From NCBI RefSeq assembly GCF_013315695.1, contig NZ_CP054353.1: 64,000 nucleotides of DNA; one strand, given 5' to 3'. Source of the stretch: Escherichia coli (GTDB taxonomy: Bacteria; Pseudomonadota; Gammaproteobacteria; Enterobacterales; Enterobacteriaceae). Under the pieces are notes generated by a model. That model did not search any database. It was not told where the DNA came from and was given only the letters and a program-made list of their open reading frames with translations. Each line of letters begins with the position of its first letter. Within the stretch, counting starts at the first letter, position 1. Shown one piece after another: positions 17,368 through 49,830 of the stretch. Made by a program: the position numbers and the translations under genes.

Positions 17368-17443
17368 GGCCCTTTAGCTCAGTGGTGAGAGCGAGCGACT
17401 CATAATCGCCAGGTCGCTGGTTCAAATCCAGCAAGGGCCACCA
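17368..17443 (+). tRNA. ileZ: Prophage tRNA with CAU anticodon, Ile2 (lysidine) type, ileZ-like
   Basis: GGCCCTTTAGCTCAGTGGTGAGAGCGAGCGACTCATAATCGCCAGGTCGCTGGTTCAAATCCAGCAAGGGCCACCA; close to host ileX in sequence. Confidence 0.85.
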
Positions 17444-17543: not shown

Positions 17544-17617
17544 GCGTTGTTAGCTCAGCCGGACAGAGCAATTGCCTTCTAAGCAATCGGTCACTGGTTC
17601 GAATCCAGTACAGCGCG
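17544..17617 (+). tRNA. Prophage tRNA-Arg (UCU), argO/argN-like
   Basis: Acceptor GCGTTGT/ACAGCGC, D-stem GCTC/GAGC, anticodon stem ATTGC/GCAAT with loop CTTCTAA, T-arm ACTGGTTCGAATCCAGT; no encoded CCA. Confidence 0.8.
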
Positions 17618-17730
17618 CTATATTCATTCTTCCAGATTCCTTCCGGCAGAGCCTTATACTGAAATATACCTGGCTCAGGATATTGTTGAAAATATTATAT
17701 GTTTGTCAAAAATAAAAGTTCTGTTAAGTA

Positions 17731-41812: not shown

Positions 41813-44800
41813 ATGGGAAAAGGTGGCGGTAAGGCACACACGCCTCGTGAGGCGAAGGATAATCTCAAATCCACGCAGATGATGAGTGTGATTGATGCGA
41901 TTGGTGAGGGACCGATAGAAGGTCCGGTGAAGGGACTGCAGAGTATTCTGGTGAACAAAACCCCGCTGACGGACACGGACGGTAATCCCGTGATACACGG
42001 TGTGACTGCGGTCTGGCGTGCCGGGGAGCAGGAGCAGACACCACCGGAAGGCTTTGAGTCCTCCGGAGCTGAAACCGGACTGGGCGTGGAAGTGACGAAG
42101 GCAAAACCGGTGACGCGCACCATTACGTCCGCGAACATTGACCGCCTGCGGGTTACCTTCGGGGTGCAGTCACTGGTGCAGACCACGTCAAAGGGCGACC
42201 GTAATCCTTCCTCTGTCCGGATTCTGATTCAGTTACAGCGTAATGGCCGCTGGGTGACGGAAAAGGATGTCACCATTAACGGCAAGACCACCTCGCAGTT
42301 CCTGGCCTCGGTGATTCTGGATAATCTGCCTCCCCGGCCCTTTAACATCCGGATGGTCAGGGAGACGGCGGACAGCACCACGGACCAGCTGCAGAATAAG
42401 ACGCTGTGGTCGTCATACACCGAAATCATCGATGTGAAACAGTGCTACCCGAACACGGCCATTGTGGGGCTGCAGGTGGATGCGGAGCAGTTCGGCGGCC
42501 AGCAGATGACGGTGAACTACCATATCCGCGGTCGCATCATCCAGGTGCCGTCAAACTATGACCCGGAAAAACGCACGTACAGTGGTATCTGGGACGGCAG
42601 CCTGAAACCGGCATACAGCAACAACCCGGCCTGGTGTCTGTGGGACATGCTGACTCACCCGCGCTACGGCATGGGAAAACGTCTGGGGGCGGCGGATGTG
42701 GACAAGTGGGCGCTGTATGCCATCGGGCAGTACTGCGACCAGACGGTCCCGGATGGTTTCGGGGGGACCGAGCCGCGGATGACCTTTAATGCGTACCTGG
42801 CACAACAGCGTAAGGCGTGGGACGTTCTCAGTGATTTCTGCTCTGCGATGCGCTGTATGCCGGTATGGAACGGCCAGACGCTGACGTTCGTTCAGGACCG
42901 TCCGTCGGATGTGGTGTGGCCGTACACCAACAGCGATGTGGTGGTGGATGATAACGGCGTGGGTTTCCGCTACAGCTCCAGTGCCCTGAAGGACCGGCAC
43001 ACGGCAGTGGAGGTGAATTACACCGACCCGCAGAACGGCTGGCAGACCTCCACGGAACTGGTGGAAGACCCGGAAGCCATACTGCGCTACGGACGCAACC
43101 TGCTGAAGATGGACGCGTTCGGCTGTACCAGCCGCGGTCAGGCCCACCGTGCCGGGCTGTGGGTGATAAAGACCGAACTGCTGGAAACGCAGACGGTGGA
43201 TTTCACGCTTGGGTCACAGGGGCTGCGTCACACACCCGGTGACATCATTGAAATCTGTGATAACGACTATGCCGGGACCATGACCGGCGGACGTGTCCTG
43301 TCCATCGATGCCGCCAGCCGTACCCTGACGCTGGACCGGGAGGTGACACTGCCGGAGACCGGCACGGCCACTGTTAATCTGATTAACGGCAGCGGTAAGC
43401 CGGCGAGCGTGGCCATCACCGCACACCCCGCGCCTGACCGGATACAGGTCAGCACCCTGCCGGATGGTGTGGAGACATACGGTGTGTGGGGACTCTCCCT
43501 GCCGTCACTGCGTCGTCGCCTGTTCCGCTGTGTCTCCATCCGGGAAAACACGGACGGCACCTTTGCCATCACGGCGGTGCAGCACGTACCTGAAAAAGAA
43601 GCCATCGTGGATAACGGGGCCCGCTTTGAGCCGCAGTCAGGCACCCTGAACAGCGTTATCCCACCGGCAGTGCAGCACCTGACGGTGGAGGTGAGCGCAG
43701 CTGACGGCCAGTATCTGGCGCAGGCTAAATGGGACACGCCGCGGGTGGTGAAGGGCGTGCGCTTCAGTCTGCGCCTGACCAGTGGTAAGGGAACGGATGC
43801 CAGACTGGTGACCACCGCCATCACCGCAGACACGGAGCACCGTTTCAGCGGCCTGCCACTGGGGGAATACACCCTGACGGTGCGGGCCATTAACAGCTAC
43901 GGCCAGCAGGGCGAACCTGCGACCACCACCTTCCGGATTAACGCGCCTGCAAAACCCGCCACCATTGAGCTGACGCCGGGGTATTTTCAGATAACGGCGG
44001 TACCGGTGCTGGCGGTGTATGACCCGACGGTGCAGTTTGAATTCTGGTTCTCAGAAAAACGCATCACGAACACGGCACAGGTGGAAAAATCTGCCCGTTA
44101 TCTGGGGACCGGCAGTCAGTGGACTGTCCAGGGGAGCCGGATTAAGCCGGGGACGGATTTCTGGTTTTACGTGCGAAGCGTCAACCTGGTGGGAAAATCT
44201 GCTTTTGTGGAAGCCAGCGGGCAGCCCAGCAATGATGGTGAAGGGTATCTGGAAATTTTCCGGGGGCTGATAGATGAGACGCTTCTGGGGCAGGCACTGA
44301 AAGAGCGCATTGATGCTTCAGCGCTGCGTACGGAGGTCACGCAACTGGAAGAAGATATCCGTCAGCGGATGGACACGGATATCGCAGAAGTGACCCGGAA
44401 AATCGGGAAGGCGGAAAACAGCCTCACGCAGCTGGTTGCGAAAAAGAATGAGGACCAGACACTGGCCATCGCGCAGGTGAGCCAGAAAGTGGACCGGGTG
44501 AGCAGTGAAATCTCACAGACTGTCAGCCAGGGGCAGTCAGAAAACGCCCGACAGATAGCACAGGTCCGCCAGTACGTGGATAAAAAAGGGAGTGAAATTA
44601 CCTCGACCACGGATAAAAAGCTGGGTGACCAGGCCGTGACCATACAGCAAATCCAGCGGGTTCAGTCAGACACGCGCAATGAGCTGAATGCCATGTATAT
44701 GCTGAAGGTGCAGAAAACAAAAAACGGTATTCCCTATGTGGCCGGGATTGGCGCGGGGATTGAGGATGTTGATGGTCAGACCCTGAGTAACATTCTGCTG

Positions 44801-45505
44801 CAGGCCGATCGCATTGCGATGATTACCCCGGAGAACGGCAACACCACGCCGCTGTTTGTGGCGCAGGGGAATCAGCTGTTCATGAACGACGTGTTCCTGA
44901 AGCGACTGTTTGCGGTGAGCATCACGTCATCCGGCAATCCTCCGACGTTTTCCCTGACGCCGGATGGCAGGCTGACAGCCCGCAATGCGGATATCAGTGG
45001 AGCCATCACGGCGAATACCGGCACGCTCAATAATGTCACCATTAACGAGAACTGTGTCATCAGAGGGAAACTGTCTGCAAACCAGATTGAAGGCGATCTC
45101 GTTAAAACAGTGGGTAAGGCTTTCCCCCGTGACTCCCGTGCACCGAAGCGTTGGCCATCAGGAACCATTACCGTCAGGGTTTATGACGATCAGCCGTTTA
45201 ACCGGCAGATTGTTATTCCGGCGGTGGCTTTCAGCGGTGCCAGACATGAGCGGGAGAACAGCGATACTTATTCGTCATGCCGCCTGATAGTGAAGAAAAA
45301 CGGTGCTGAAATTTATAACCGTACCGCGATGGATAATACGCTGGTTTACAGTGGTGTTATTGATATGCCTGCTGGTCGCGGCCACATGACGCTGGAGTTT
45401 TCTGTATCAGCATGGTGGGTAAATGGCTGGTATCCCACAGCAAGTATCAGCGATTTGCTGGTTGTTGTGATGAAGAAAGCCACTGCAGGCATCACGATTA
45501 GCTGA
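41813..45505 (+). CDS. J: Central tail fiber / host specificity protein gpJ
   Basis: 1230 aa; N-terminus [52 protein letters not shown]... lambda-J-like. Confidence 0.9.
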
Positions 45506-45572
45506 ATTTTATAACCCCAATACGGGCGCCAGAAATGGCGCCTTTTTTATTGCAGAAAAGCGAGAGGTAATT

Positions 45573-46172
45573 ATGCGTAAATTATGTGCAGCCATTTTGT
45601 CCGCAGCCATCTGTCTGTCCGTATCCGGTGCGCCTGCATGGGCGTCTGAACATCAGTCCACACTGAGCGCGGGGTATCTTCATGCCCGTACGAACGCTCC
45701 CGGCAGCGATAATCTGAACGGGATTAACGTGAAATACCGTTATGAGTTTACGGACACGCTGGGGCTGATTACGTCCTTCAGTTATGCCAATGCTGAGGAT
45801 GAGCAAAAAACGCACTACAACGATACCCGCTGGCATGAAGATTCCGTGCGTAACCGCTGGTTCAGCGTGATGGCGGGGCCGTCTGTACGCGTGAATGAAT
45901 GGTTCAGCGCGTATGCGATGGTGGGTGTGGCTTACAGCCGTGTGTCGACTTTCTCCGGGGATTATCTCCGCGTAACTGACAACAAGGGGAAAACGCACGA
46001 TGTGCTGACCGGAAGTGATGACGGTCGCCACAGCAACACGTCTCTGGCGTGGGGGGCTGGCGTGCAGTTTAACCCGACCGAATCCGTGGCCATTGATATT
46101 GCTTATGAAGGCTCCGGTAGTGGTGACTGGCGCACTGACGGTTTCATCGTGGGTGTCGGTTATAAGTTCTGA
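45573..46172 (+). CDS. lom: Lom-like outer membrane protein (Ail/Lom family)
   Basis: Signal peptide MRKLCAAILSAAICLSVSGAPAWA, beta-barrel-like pattern, C-terminal ...GVGYKF. Confidence 0.85.
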   Translation: MRKLCAAILSAAICLSVSGAPAWASEHQSTLSAGYLHARTNAPGSDNLNGINVKYRYEFTDTLGLITSFSYANAEDEQKTHYNDTRWHEDSVRNRWFSVMAGPSVRVNEWFSAYAMVGVAYSRVSTFSGDYLRVTDNKGKTHDVLTGSDDGRHSNTSLAWGAGVQFNPTESVAIDIAYEGSGSGDWRTDGFIVGVGYKF

Positions 46173-46198: not shown

Positions 46199-46226
46199 AG
46201 CCCGCCGGTTCAGGCGGGCTTTTTTG
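46199..46226 (+). terminator. Intrinsic terminator after lom
   Basis: agcccgcc ggttcag gcgggct followed by tttttt. Confidence 0.75.
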
Positions 46227-46236
46227 TGGAGTGGAT

Positions 46237-48303
46237 ATGGCAGCAGTAAAAATCTCAGGTGTGCTGAAAGATGGTGCGGGAAAACCAATACAGAACTGCA
46301 CTATTCAACTGAAGGCAAAGCGTAACAGCACCACGGTACTGGTGAACACGGTGGCCTCTGAAAATCCGGATGAAGCCGGGCGTTACAGCATGGATGTTGA
46401 GTATGGCCAGTACAGCGTCACCCTGCTGGTTGAAGGTTTTCCACCTTCACATGCCGGGACCATTACCGTCTATGAAGGTTCCAGACCAGGTACGCTGAAT
46501 GATTTTCTCGGTGCCATGACGGAGGATGATGTTCGTCCGGAGGCACTGCGCCGTTTTGAGCTGATGGTGAATGAAGTGGCACGTCATGCCGGAGCGTCAT
46601 CACAGAGTGCAGCGGCGGCAAAGAAATCCGAAACGGCAGCAGCCTCATCGAAGAATGCGGCGAAAACCTCAGAAACGAATGCAGCTAACAGCGCACAGGC
46701 GGCAGCGGCCTCGCAGACTGCATCGGCAAACTCCGCGACAGCAGCCAAAAAATCAGAAACCAGCGCGAAAAATAGCGAGACAGCCACAAAGGCCAGCGAA
46801 AAAAACGCAAAATCCAGCCAGACGGCAGCGAAAACCAGTGAGACGAATGCCAAAGACAGTGAAGCCAACGCAAAGGTGAGCGAAACAGCGGCGGCGAACT
46901 CGGCGAAAGCATCGGCAGCAAGCCAGACGGCAGCAAAAGCAAGTGAAGATGCTGCCAGAGAATACGCAAACCAGACAGCAGAGCCGTACAGATATGTTTT
47001 ACAGCCGCTGCCGGATGTGTGGATACCCTTTAATGATTCGCTGGATATGATTACGGGCTATTCTCCGGGTTATAAAAAAGTGAAGATTGGTGATAATGTG
47101 GTTCAGGTTGCCAGTGATAAACAGGTTAATTTCAGTCGCGCATCAACGGCAACATATATCAACAAATCTGGCGAACTGAAAACGGCGGAAATTAATGAGC
47201 CACGATTTGAGTGTGATGGCCTGCTTATTGAGGGGCAAAGAACGAACTTCTTCCCGAACAGTACAGACCCTTCGAAGTGGAATAAGTCAACTTCACTGGA
47301 CGTTACAGAAACAGGCACAGATAGTTTCGGGTTTAATTATGGCCGGTTTGTCGTACAGGATTCGATTGTTGGTACAAGTAAAGCGCATACCATTATCGGA
47401 CTGTATTCGAGTACCGGAGGGGTTGATACTTCAGGGGACGAAAAGCATGTAACTATATCCTGTCGGGTAAAAAGTGAAGTTGATAATATCGCCGTTCGTA
47501 TTTTATTTGAACATTATGATGGGGAGGTAAGGACATCAATAGGAGCAGCAAACCTGAACCTTACCACCCGCATAATTAGCAAGACAGGTCAGACAAGCCG
47601 TGTTACAGCAAGGTCTGTTAAGGATGATGCAACTGGCTGGATATTTTTTGAGGCTACATTAAAAGCAGATACAACAGAAAATACGGTTGGTGGTTTTGTC
47701 CAGTATTCTCCGGATACAGGGCAGATGGTTGCATCAGGGGATTATCTCGATGTAACCACTCCACAGATTGAGGCTGGTACAGGCGCATCATCTTTTATTG
47801 TTACGGGGACGGCACCGGTAACGCGGGCAAGCGATATGGTTACAGTTCCGATTAAGAATAATCTTTATAATCTTCCTTTTACGGTTCTTTGTGAGGTACA
47901 TAAGAACTGGTATAAAACGCCAAATGCAGCACCGCGTGTTTTTGACACATACCGGCATCAGGCAGATGCGGGGATCGTAATGGGGTTTGGTTCATCAGGT
48001 GGGTACGACGGTTTTCCGTATTGCGATATAGGTGGTTCAGACCGACGAATAAATGAAAATGCCGGGCTGGAAAAAATGCTTATTGGTATGCGGGTAAAGT
48101 CCGAACGGTCCACATGTGTAGTCAGTAACGGTAAGTTAAGCAGCGAAACTAAAACCAAATGGGAATATATCCGGAGTACAGCAACCATTCGCATTGGTGG
48201 ACAAACTACAGCAGGATTACGCCATTTATTTGGGCATGTGAGGAATTTTCGTCTCTGGCATAAAGAGCTAACAGATGCGCAGCTTGGGGAGGTTGTGGAG
48301 TGA
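46237..48303 (+). CDS. stf: Side tail fiber Stf: lambda-Stf-like N-terminus, Ala/Ser/Thr-rich repeat stalk, divergent C-terminal receptor-binding region
   Basis: MAVKISGVLKDGAGKPIQNCTIQLKAKRNSTTVLVNTVASENPDEAGRYSMDVEYGQYSVTLLVEGFPPSHAGTITVYEG...; ATG chosen 6 nt after the ORF-track GTG. Confidence 0.85.
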   Translation: MAAVKISGVLKDGAGKPIQNCTIQLKAKRNSTTVLVNTVASENPDEAGRYSMDVEYGQYSVTLLVEGFPPSHAGTITVYEGSRPGTLNDFLGAMTEDDVRPEALRRFELMVNEVARHAGASSQSAAAAKKSETAAASSKNAAKTSETNAANSAQAAAASQTASANSATAAKKSETSAKNSETATKASEKNAKSSQTAAKTSETNAKDSEANAKVSETAAANSAKASAASQTAAKASEDAAREYANQTAEPYRYVLQPLPDVWIPFNDSLDMITGYSPGYKKVKIGDNVVQVASDKQVNFSRASTATYINKSGELKTAEINEPRFECDGLLIEGQRTNFFPNSTDPSKWNKSTSLDVTETGTDSFGFNYGRFVVQDSIVGTSKAHTIIGLYSSTGGVDTSGDEKHVTISCRVKSEVDNIAVRILFEHYDGEVRTSIGAANLNLTTRIISKTGQTSRVTARSVKDDATGWIFFEATLKADTTENTVGGFVQYSPDTGQMVASGDYLDVTTPQIEAGTGASSFIVTGTAPVTRASDMVTVPIKNNLYNLPFTVLCEVHKNWYKTPNAAPRVFDTYRHQADAGIVMGFGSSGGYDGFPYCDIGGSDRRINENAGLEKMLIGMRVKSERSTCVVSNGKLSSETKTKWEYIRSTATIRIGGQTTAGLRHLFGHVRNFRLWHKELTDAQLGEVVE

Positions 48304-48578
48304 GAGATTTCACGTTGCGTTTCAGTGATAAAGCAGATTTCAGGGCATTTCTCAGGAAACTTAACTGGGAAGAGGACGAAGAGCTGCAGAATGCCGTTCT
48401 GGTTGATGAGATTGGTTTTACGTTCAGGGAGACAGATGTTTCTGATGACGGAGAACCAGAATACACGCGAAACGAAGGGTACTTTGTTAATATCCGTCTT
48501 CTTGACGATGGATTTGATGATTCCGTGTTCCGTGAGTGGGTGGTTACACCAGAGCGCCCGCTCAGGGAGTGGTTTTAA
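48300..48578 (+). CDS. Hypothetical acidic protein downstream of stf (tail fiber assembly/chaperone position), GTG start
   Basis: GTG overlaps the stf stop (GTGA); 92 aa; not lambda-Tfa-like. Confidence 0.45.
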   Translation: MRDFTLRFSDKADFRAFLRKLNWEEDEELQNAVLVDEIGFTFRETDVSDDGEPEYTRNEGYFVNIRLLDDGFDDSVFREWVVTPERPLREWF

Positions 48579-48587
48579 GGATAGCAG

Positions 48588-48875
48588 ATGGATATCACGT
48601 CGATACTTCATGCGCTTTGTGCCGTAGCGGTGCAGGTACTGGCTGGTCTTTTTACCGGAAACTGGGCTTACGGTGCGATAGCCGGTTGTACGTTCTTCAT
48701 TGCGCGTGAACACACCCAGGCAGAATATCGCTGGATTGAAATGTTTGGGCATGGCAAGAGGATTAACATGCCGTGGTGGGGCGGTTTTGATCCGCGCGTG
48801 TGGGATGTGGCAAGCCTGATGGATTTTGCTGTGCCGGTGGTGGCGTGTCTGCTGATCTGGATGTTGATCCGTTAA
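48588..48875 (+). CDS. Hypothetical membrane protein, 95 aa, last prophage gene before attR
   Basis: MDITSILHALCAVAVQVLAGLFTGNWAYGAIAGCTFFIAREH...; two or three hydrophobic segments. Confidence 0.5.
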   Translation: MDITSILHALCAVAVQVLAGLFTGNWAYGAIAGCTFFIAREHTQAEYRWIEMFGHGKRINMPWWGGFDPRVWDVASLMDFAVPVVACLLIWMLIR

Positions 48876-49112
48876 ATATAAAAAGTAAAAAGCCGCAGTA
48901 ACTTGTCATGACAGGATACTGCGGCTGGCTGGTTAACTTTCGATAGTGCGAGTATTGAATGATTTCCAGCTGTTACTGATTTTATATAACTGCAGTGGAA
49001 TTATTCAACACACAGGCAAAACGGAATAAGCTGAGAAAAAAAGCGTGCTTTCCCAATCTGGGGTAAATCACATCTGAATGACACCTGAAAACAGGTGGTG
49101 GCCTCAAGAAGG

Positions 49113-49185
49113 CTTGGAATATTCTTCTTTAATGTTATGTAATTTATTGATTTTTCGTGTACGATTTTAAGACATTTATTCCAAG
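49113..49185. repeat. CTTGGAATAT arm-type motif copies flanking attR (one direct, one inverted)
   Basis: cttggaatat at 49113-49122 and attccaag at 49178-49185; same motif as 1882-1914. Confidence 0.45.
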
Positions 49186-49224
49186 AAAAATTTTTAACTC
49201 TTTGATTTTTCGACTCTGTATCAT

Positions 49225-49286
49225 CGGTCTCGAAAACCGGAGTAGGGGCAACTCTACCGGGGGTTCAAATCCCCCTCTCTCCGCCA
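49225..49286. other. attR core: displaced original 3' part of serU
   Basis: CGGTCTCGAAAACCGGAGTAGGGGCAACTCTACCGGGGGTTCAAATCCCCCTCTCTCCGCCA, no 5' half of the tRNA upstream. Confidence 0.85.
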
Positions 49287-49830
49287 CTTTATCAATGACT
49301 TATCTCCCGACTTCCCGCCTTGCTTTTCCTAAACAGAACAATCGTAGAATATTCTTGAAGGGTTAGATCGTCACTGTTTTCTGTTCGATACTGTGACATT
49401 CAGCACTTGATTCGCTATGGAGCTGACAGGAAGGTTTCGAGCGAAAATCTACAGTTATTCAGTCGTTTTCTTATCGATCACCATTATTCTTTTAGACATT
49501 GATCCTATGAAACTGCCGCAAAGTTGCTGGCGGGAACTGAAGTTGCGTAGAGAAGGGGTCAATAATTGAGCCAAAAAAGGAACGCGGCCGTCAGATTAAA
49601 GCCGCGGGACAAAGTCCATAATTTCCAAGAGTTGTTGAATTTCCCAGCTTTTTTGAAAGCCTTTGTATTATACTAACAAGTAAAAAAGGTTTAAACACCA
49701 AAATTAACCTATATTTCTGGTTAGCTTTACCATGACAGATGACTTGCTCCTGGAAACATTTGCGCTGCCAGTCTGTATGGCTGAGTTGTGTATTTATTGT
49801 TCGCCTTTTTCGCAGTTTTTTTCTACAGAC

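Follow-up and report, generated by a model that had tools for sequence, protein, structure and literature searches.

A mosaic side tail fibre and two small downstream genes form the exchangeable end of the side-tail-fibre locus of a lambdoid prophage in Escherichia coli

Introduction

The last three genes of a lambdoid prophage of Escherichia coli make up the exchangeable distal end of its side-tail-fibre locus. The prophage, ∼47.5 kb in length and integrated at serU, lies in a 64,000-nucleotide stretch of contig NZ_CP054353.1 (assembly GCF_013315695.1), called the window in what follows. The genes occupy positions 46237–48875 on its plus strand: stf, for a mosaic side tail fibre of 688 amino acids (46237–48303); p92, for an acidic, probable fibre accessory protein of 92 amino acids (48300–48578); and p95, for a small membrane protein of 95 amino acids (48588–48875), with which the prophage genes end. 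The best explanation for the three together, held with fair though not high confidence, is a chimeric Stf tipped with a lectin, an accessory protein for that fibre (p92) and a conserved membrane protein of temperate phages (p95).

Side and lateral tail fibres set the range of strains that a phage can reach, by way of the O-antigen and the capsule, and distal fibre modules are swapped to retarget lambda-based delivery particles and therapeutic phages. A first description of the locus, made from the letters of the DNA and its open reading frames (the sequence-only reading), had proposed a mosaic Stf directed to a different receptor, a 92-residue gene in the place of the Tfa chaperone, and a membrane protein at a site typical of exclusion or conversion cargo. 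The locus is real, correctly described and ordinary, a representative of a mobile fibre cassette that is common. E. coli MSB1_4I carries the region at 100% identity, 260 of 5,426 complete E. coli genomes have 80% or more of it, and its identity to ev243, a temperate infant-gut phage, is 97%. The same three genes are called by RefSeq/PGAP on the 100%-identical chromosome NZ_LR898874.

Results

The side tail fibre is a chimera

Stf couples an anchor and stalk of lambda type with a receptor-binding module that moves horizontally. The open reading frame matches the families phrog_1419 (tail protein) and phrog_3279 (tail fiber), and its PGAP product name is 'prophage tail fiber N-terminal domain-containing protein'. 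The anchor comprises residues 1–134 (46237–46638, + strand): PF08400 is matched over residues 5–134 (E=3.8e-67; 224.8 bits, cut-off 26.6), residues 3–95 are near-identical to the solved N-terminus of lambda Stf (PDB 9e7m; E=4.8e-49), and lambda orf-401 shares 74% identity with residues 3–159. The stalk (residues ∼116–250; 46582–46986, + strand) is rich in Ala (33%), Ser (17%), Lys (11%) and Thr (10%) and has a heptad period: its self-identity is 0.41–0.45 at lags of 7, 14, 21 and 28 residues and ∼0.14 at other lags, and it includes six K-x-S-E-x-x-A heptads and eight SExxA motifs. It is predicted to form a trimeric coiled coil. Tandem Repeats Finder (TRF) detected no tandem repeat in the stalk DNA, so the repeat exists at the protein level only. 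The lambda-like N-terminus and the Ala/Ser/Thr-rich, heptad-like stalk with repeated AAK(T/S)SETNA units had both been described in the sequence-only reading, and both are upheld.

Past the stalk, the likeness to lambda ends. BLASTP of Stf against lambda orf-401, orf-314 and Tfa found no similarity beyond residue ∼210, in agreement with the earlier claim that the C-terminus is unlike that of lambda Stf; the C-terminal 430 amino acids are unrelated to it, and the G+C content falls from ∼0.55 to ∼0.44–0.46 at the start of the distal module. A domain search of the C-terminus gives an assignment in each of its two parts. C1, the variable part (residues 256–540; 47002–47856, + strand), contains a domain (residues 330–531; 47224–47829, + strand) resembling the head spike fibre of a gene transfer agent (GTA), matched by NCBIfam NF048003 'GTA spike fiber' at 72.1 bits (cut-off 36) and by PDB 6tb9, the RcGTA head spike fibre Rcc01080, at E=4.2e-5. 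C2 (residues 541–688; 47857–48300, + strand) is a ConA-like/LamG/CBM40-like lectin: it has the beta-sandwich jelly-roll fold of ConA, LamG and CBM40 and a conserved end motif, RHLFGH(I/V)RNFR(I/L)WHKxLTDxQ.

The module formed by C1 and C2 is mobile, and tips the lateral fibres of several families of virulent coliphages. Virulent T5-like, T1-like and rV5-like phages share it at 41–54% identity: over Stf residues ∼124–688, the figure is 54% for the fibre of Bas32 (T5-like), 45% for Bas06 (Drexlerviridae) and 41% for Bas48 (rV5-like). It is also present in Nonagvirus, at lower identity, and in Dhillonvirus; rV5 itself is without the C2/p92 module, and the Eligo preprint on lambda-STF engineering contains nothing on the distal module. 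Independent recombination of the four segments (anchor, stalk, C1 and C2) is evident across 80 loci of related prophages. Among prophages with the same 92-residue gene, the identity of C1 ranges from 60 to 100%, with little variation in C2 or the gene that follows, which makes C1 the likely specificity-determining part of the fibre.

Since the distal domains are of glycan-binding type, a receptor other than that of lambda is a reasonable expectation, and this reasoning lends good support to a mosaic fibre whose receptor is different and probably a glycan. The mosaic structure proposed earlier is established by the break between anchor and distal part and by the drop in G+C; the different receptor keeps the standing of a reasonable deduction from the domain types. 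C2 probably binds carbohydrate, to judge from its fold neighbours and from the O-antigen dependence of related fibres (PMC11990801). The Bas32 homologue, Gp22, is described by the BASEL authors as a proximal fibre from which a galectin-like domain protrudes at the C-terminus, perhaps as an extra receptor-binding domain, and as the carrier of a distal fibre; such fibres, and the Stf of Ur-lambda, deal with the O-antigen (PMC11990801). The fibre of the window would engage a surface glycan, be it O-antigen, capsule or lipopolysaccharide, in an initial and reversible contact, and not the targets of lambda Stf.

The Stf–Tfa locus of lambda (Ur-lambda) has the same slot order, namely J, lom (a terminator-flanked moron), stf and a small downstream gene, and shares the anchor (PF08400; 74% over 157 amino acids) and an Ala/Ser/Thr-rich stalk of like kind. 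It differs in the distal 430 residues and in the last gene: neither a Tfa-like nor a second-fibre open reading frame is present anywhere in the window (tblastn for Tfa), and p92 is half the size of lambda Tfa, with an unrelated sequence and predicted fold. In the Tequintavirus IrisVonRoten (Bas32), Gp22, 54% identical to Stf residues 128–688, ends in the same galectin/LamG-like domain, and Gp23 is 46% identical to p92, with the same overlap with the fibre stop. Bas32, however, is virulent, anchors its fibre through a T5-type N-terminus and a collar protein, and has a 574-residue distal T-shaped fibre (Gp24) after Gp23, whereas the window carries p95 in place of any distal fibre.

The globular domain of Rcc01080 aligns with Stf residues ∼299–546, including the start N(E/T)PR(F/Y) ... 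TN(F/L)(F/L)PNS, but at low identity, and the GTA spike is head-mounted and is without the lambda anchor, heptad stalk and terminal lectin. LtfA and LtfB of T5-like DT57C follow a like concept, with a proximal fibre carrying an O-antigen-specific second fibre; both end in autocleaving S74-type intramolecular chaperones, no LamG end was seen, and term searches of the two papers turned up neither a small open reading frame in between nor a chaperone gene of its own (PMC4728585, PMC10713586). DT57C was rejected as an instance of the same module, because S74 intramolecular chaperones denote a different fibre type, and serves as an analogy only.

p92 is inherited with the fibre end

The p92 gene begins with a GTG contained in GTGA, overlaps the stf stop by 4 nt, and has GGAGG 7 nt upstream of its start. 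The protein is acidic (pI 4.26; 24 Asp and Glu against 12 Lys and Arg). The earlier observation that Tfa is missing and that an acidic 92-residue reading frame, its GTG overlapping the stf stop, stands in its position is thereby borne out. The PHROG 1361 profile covers the whole protein (E=1.1e-40 over 1–92 of 92), and this family is annotated 'unknown function'. A collection of 5.8 billion proteins holds 351 relatives, and the 120 listed have neither a functional name nor a Pfam domain; sequence searches of Pfam, NCBIfam, PADLOC and the PDB gave no match, and no papers on these accessions or PHROG numbers were found.

A tblastn search finds p92 in 191 phage records, beside a fibre gene in each row listed, and C2 occurs in 202 phage records, with p92 at adjacent coordinates in every record compared. 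In 80 IMG/VR loci and 13 phage records the gene directly follows a fibre with C1 and C2, and of the 75 IMG/VR loci that can be scored, 74 have a p92 start that overlaps the end of the fibre gene, with an overlap of 4 nt at 52 loci and of 1 nt at 22, which argues for translational coupling of p92 to the fibre. It is intact in virulent phages and so serves the lytic cycle or the virion, not lysogeny. In temperate and virulent coliphages alike, fibre end and p92 act as a single unit of transfer.

Expression data from the prophages of E. coli LF82 are consistent with this unit. After 6 h in macrophages, compared with lysogeny broth (LB), the log2 fold changes (log2FC) of stf, p92 and the second fibre gene of Tritos are 5.4, 7.9 and 6.2 (J, 1.7), and those of stf, p92 and p95 of Perceval are 4.9, 3.7 and 3.0 (PMC9928086 S1/S4). 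The joint rise of stf and p92 supports their co-transcription. By virtue of the overlap and of this co-induction, p92 has the feature expected of the Tfa class, an adjacent downstream gene co-expressed with the fibre.

p95 is a conserved membrane protein of temperate phages

The p95 gene starts 9 nt past the p92 stop, behind AAGGA. Its product is hydrophobic, with a grand average of hydropathy (GRAVY) of +0.64 and hydrophobic stretches at residues ∼4–39 and 78–95, and no credible open reading frame lies between 48875 and attR (49225–49286); the description of a 95-residue membrane protein as the last gene before attR stands. The PHROG 1443 profile is matched over 1–95 of 97 (E=4.6e-57), and is likewise annotated 'unknown function'. 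The central motif AREHTQAEYRWI...GKRxNMPWWGGFDPRxW is strikingly conserved, residues H8, R40, E41, Q44, E46, Y47, R48, G66, F67, W72, D79 and P83 are invariant, identity is 55–60% across Escherichia, Aeromonas and Comamonas, and dN/dS is 0.16–0.26. A profile search of 1.84 billion representatives returned 534 cluster representatives, the best 150 of which are all stand-alone proteins of ∼70–146 amino acids, and no informative domain fusion was found among the matches. One remote plasmid homologue is annotated DUF5658.

The gene follows the last receptor-binding gene, whatever the type of the latter. In lambdoids it comes after p92 or a second fibre, in the P22-like Gally between tailspike and int with a 240-nt upstream spacer, in the myovirus phiHAP-1 after Tfa, and in phages from Comamonas and from metagenomes after a fibre of J-like or LamG type. 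Its temperate hosts comprise sipho-, podo- and myoviruses, and homologues are found on non-mobilizable plasmids of ∼90–110 kb, which are taken to be phage-plasmids. Virulent phages with the same fibre–p92 module are without p95. The virulent Escherichia phage HC6 has an unannotated, broken p95-like remnant of 51 codons (L010, 3465–3620; ending ...RRRANIPWWGGFDWRAWDLPSLLD and a stop) just after an 859-residue tail fibre whose C-terminus is of S74 type; this points to an earlier exchange with temperate phages, after which the gene decayed. Its absence from virulent carriers and its decay in HC6 make p95 look like a temperate accessory gene and not a morphogenetic one. A part in fibre assembly was considered and is unlikely, p95 being missing from virulent carriers of the module and sitting behind unrelated tailspikes.

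More distant homologues from metagenomic sequences (L183, 475–1614; L182, 2096–3800) lie directly after short fibres, with no p92. These short fibres have both the NEPRF...TNLLLNS start and the LamG-type '...R(A/P)LTAxE(I/V)L' end in common with the distal part of Stf. The association of p95 with this fibre type may thus go deeper than the E. coli data show.

Transcription and history of the cassette

Terminator-like G+C-rich hairpins (45524–45543 and 46199–46220) bracket lom, an arrangement classic for a moron. Only 16 nt separate the second hairpin from the start codon of stf, so stf needs antitermination or a start site of its own; no sigma-70-like promoter was found on the plus strand between 45400 and 49400. 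In the Perceval, Tritos and Gally prophages of LF82 within macrophages, genes for the side tail fibre or tailspike rise 8- to 230-fold together with the small genes that follow, and J, lom and the rest of the tail genes remain close to background (PMC9928086). Induction of the fibre end without J and lom suggests that transcription of the distal fibre genes need not depend on the late operon. For Gally, the text of the same study notes the induction of the five rightmost genes, the tailspike included (PMC9928086).

A further hairpin lies past the last prophage gene on the minus strand (48876–48925; arms 48892–48900 and 48917–48925, U-run 48876–48891), with a predicted RNA folding energy of −27 kcal/mol (z=−4.4). 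From the orientation of int, it is read as a terminator of leftward transcripts across attP, probably a tI/sib-like terminator or retroregulator of int transcripts, and it may limit the late operon too. Alternatively, together with a weak promoter-like site on the minus strand (49008–48979), it could yield an antisense RNA of ∼90 nt.

Most related prophages retain the 3' end of tfa (...EAWKKYRVLLNRVDTSTA) after p95, either directly after it or ∼0.9–3.7 kb downstream (for example L013, 5946–6140; L015, 7500–7805; L045, 9324–9629). These remnants indicate that the block of C1–C2, p92 and p95 replaced the distal part of stf–tfa by recombination. The window has no tfa remnant; its lineage (16 of 98 loci) has the hairpin with the minus-strand U-run after p95 instead.

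Prophage setting

The intact serU gene, for tRNA-Ser(cga), lies at 1747–1836, and a candidate integrase gene (341 amino acids; 1889–2914, − strand) adjoins attL. At the other end, attR is a displaced 62-nt 3' fragment of tRNA-Ser(cga) (49225–49286, + strand), whose exact core of 31 nt (49256–49286) equals 1806–1836 in serU; beyond it lie the host genes zinT, msrQ and msrP. An Rfam scan of 48500–49500 matched tRNA fragments only. Upstream of stf are gpJ (41813–45505) and lom (45573–46172). Within the prophage there are also genes for tRNA-Met(cat) (17368–17443) and tRNA-Arg(tct) (17544–17618); tRNA genes are carried by many lambdoid and Stx-type phages.

Discussion

It is quite likely that p92 is a fibre accessory protein that occupies the position of Tfa. 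It would be made in the cytoplasm together with Stf as a dedicated accessory, translationally coupled to it and co-inherited with the C2 end. One option is that it acts as an assembly factor, setting the register of the C-terminal end of the trimer or stabilising it, which would be the job of Tfa done with an unrelated fold. The other is that it remains part of the fibre, as a small cap or as an adaptor that in relatives with a second fibre gene could link the distal fibre. A chaperone role is somewhat favoured over a retained adaptor or cap. The proposal that p92 stands in for Tfa holds for its position and its link to the fibre type and fails for kinship: neither its sequence nor its predicted fold resembles Tfa, gp38-type or gp57A-type chaperones, the AlphaFold2 (AF2) model having a predicted local distance difference test score (pLDDT) of 87.5.

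Some observations weigh against p92 as an accessory of the C2 end. In an AF2 monomer of C2 fused to p92 through a 25-residue linker (30 same-genome paired rows), both domains are confident and the linker is disordered, with a predicted template modelling score (pTM) of 0.56 and no confident interface; for a monomer built on a 30-row alignment, this lends no support to a simple 1:1 complex and leaves room for binding to the trimer. A C2 78% identical to that of the window may be paired with a p92 of only 43% identity, so the two do not track each other strictly. Proteomics of AKFV33, limited to four gel bands, had the Stf-like ORF137 among them and not the small ORF136; the rV5 proteomics have no bearing on p92, rV5 being without the module. 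Every virulent phage examined has p92 flanked by two fibre genes, a position that fits an adaptor as well as a chaperone. This last point leads to a different and rather doubtful explanation, that p92 docks a second, distal fibre on the lectin end of a branched fibre and is a leftover in the window, where the distal gene has been lost. The order of fibre, p92 and second fibre (225–586 amino acids, with a conserved N-terminus MATxTVIPxDIxxLK) is seen in T5-like Bas32, AKFV33, Stokescottia and ev219, in Nonagvirus BRET and JenP1, in Drexlerviridae Bas06 and swan01, and at 24 prophage loci of the Tritos type; of the Tritos trio, p92 shows the strongest co-induction, and the distal T-shaped fibre of Bas32 has been modelled as attached to the proximal fibre (PMC11990801). 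Against it, the second fibre gene is missing from 38 loci of two p92 clades (all 31 loci of the window type, and 7 of the 2E9 type), in which p92 is intact, conserved in length and under purifying selection (dN/dS 0.27–0.41 within these clades; between p92 clades, pN is 0.24 and pS is saturated at 0.87). Retention under selection without a second fibre points to a role that needs no distal fibre and is exerted for Stf itself, and purifying selection led to the rejection of p92 as a functionless relic. In Gordonclarkvirinae, moreover, the equivalent distal fibre is placed on a proximal fibre encoded by the adjacent gene (Gp9/Gp10; PMC11990801), a numbering that appears to leave no room for a p92-like gene between them.

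For p95, an exclusion or other host-membrane function can be put forward only tentatively. It might be an inner-membrane accessory directed at the host membrane for temperate life, for example by blocking the entry of DNA from superinfecting phages, although confidence in this mechanism is low. A lysogenic-conversion or superinfection-exclusion moron expressed from the prophage, as the sequence-only reading suggested, is a possibility of the same doubtful order. It agrees with the place of p95 before attR, with its intact occurrence mainly in temperate phages, prophages and presumed phage-plasmids and its decay in virulent HC6, with the separate slot in Gally, with purifying selection, and with the macrophage induction of two of the three LF82 homologues (Gally and Perceval, along with the upstream gene), which would fit conditional expression. 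Several results weigh the other way. p95 lies 9 nt behind p92, with no plus-strand promoter in the interval searched. With expression in LB defined as 5-fold above the median of each prophage, the homologues in lysogens of the three LF82 prophages are at background, with 11.5, 10.4 and 18.3 normalised counts, and not among the genes at least 5-fold over it (PMC9928086); the Tritos homologue is not co-induced with the fibre genes in macrophages either (log2FC 0.2). The marks of a moron, a promoter and terminator of its own and expression in the repressed lysogen, are not seen for p95 in the window or for these homologues in LB. Searches of Pfam, NCBIfam, PADLOC and the PDB, also by profile, gave no match to p95 and hence no exclusion, defence or holin family, and an identity of 55–60% across three genera is unusually high for exclusion proteins. 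The position claimed earlier is correct, but given the spacing, promoter, LB expression and family searches, exclusion or conversion amounts to a guess from position.

Receptor-linked exclusion genes do occur beside receptor-binding genes, as in llp of T5 and cor of phi80 and N15, whose products are outer-membrane lipoproteins specific to one receptor, FhuA. p95 is like Llp and Cor in being a small envelope protein at the end of a host-recognition cluster; it is unlike them in that no lipoprotein signal is recognisable by eye, no such family is matched, and the gene is kept whatever receptor-binding protein lies upstream. A lysis-associated membrane protein, holin-like or a holin regulator, split from the S-R-Rz cassette in lambdoids, is improbable. 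In some distant phages p95 does lie beside lysis genes, which tells against a host-membrane function: on a Logan contig it is followed by a 98-residue one-transmembrane (TM) reading frame and a VanY/M15 peptidase, on another contig by two small TM reading frames and a CHAP domain protein, and in a Comamonas prophage by two three-TM reading frames and a soluble protein of 183 residues. The same loci, however, carry separate holin-like reading frames, and since lysis genes follow tail genes in those phages the adjacency may be coincidental. In lambdoids, P22-like phages and phiHAP-1 a long distance separates p95 from the lysis genes, and none adjoins it in the window; it matches no Pfam or other holin family, and the E. 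coli protein, which ends ...IWMLIR, is without the charged C-terminal tail typical of holins.

A bolder combination of these readings is speculative, and rather unlikely to hold in all its parts: p92 would represent a new and structurally distinct class of fibre accessory, obligatory for fibres with a LamG/CBM40 end in at least six coliphage lineages and serving also as the joint of branched fibres; p95 would be a receptor-independent block to DNA entry at the inner membrane in temperate phages; and the stf–p92 unit would be inducible in lysogens, for example in macrophages, apart from the late operon.

Nothing in the locus is unique to the window, and its value lies in the family-level picture and in a clearer context for two widespread unannotated genes. 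If the unit of fibre end and p92 holds experimentally, chimeric fibres built with this module should bring p92 along, as is done with Tfa for lambda or P2 tips. With a function for either p92 or p95 (PHROGs 1361 and 1443), hundreds of coliphages could be better annotated, as could the prophages of at least 260 complete E. coli genomes.

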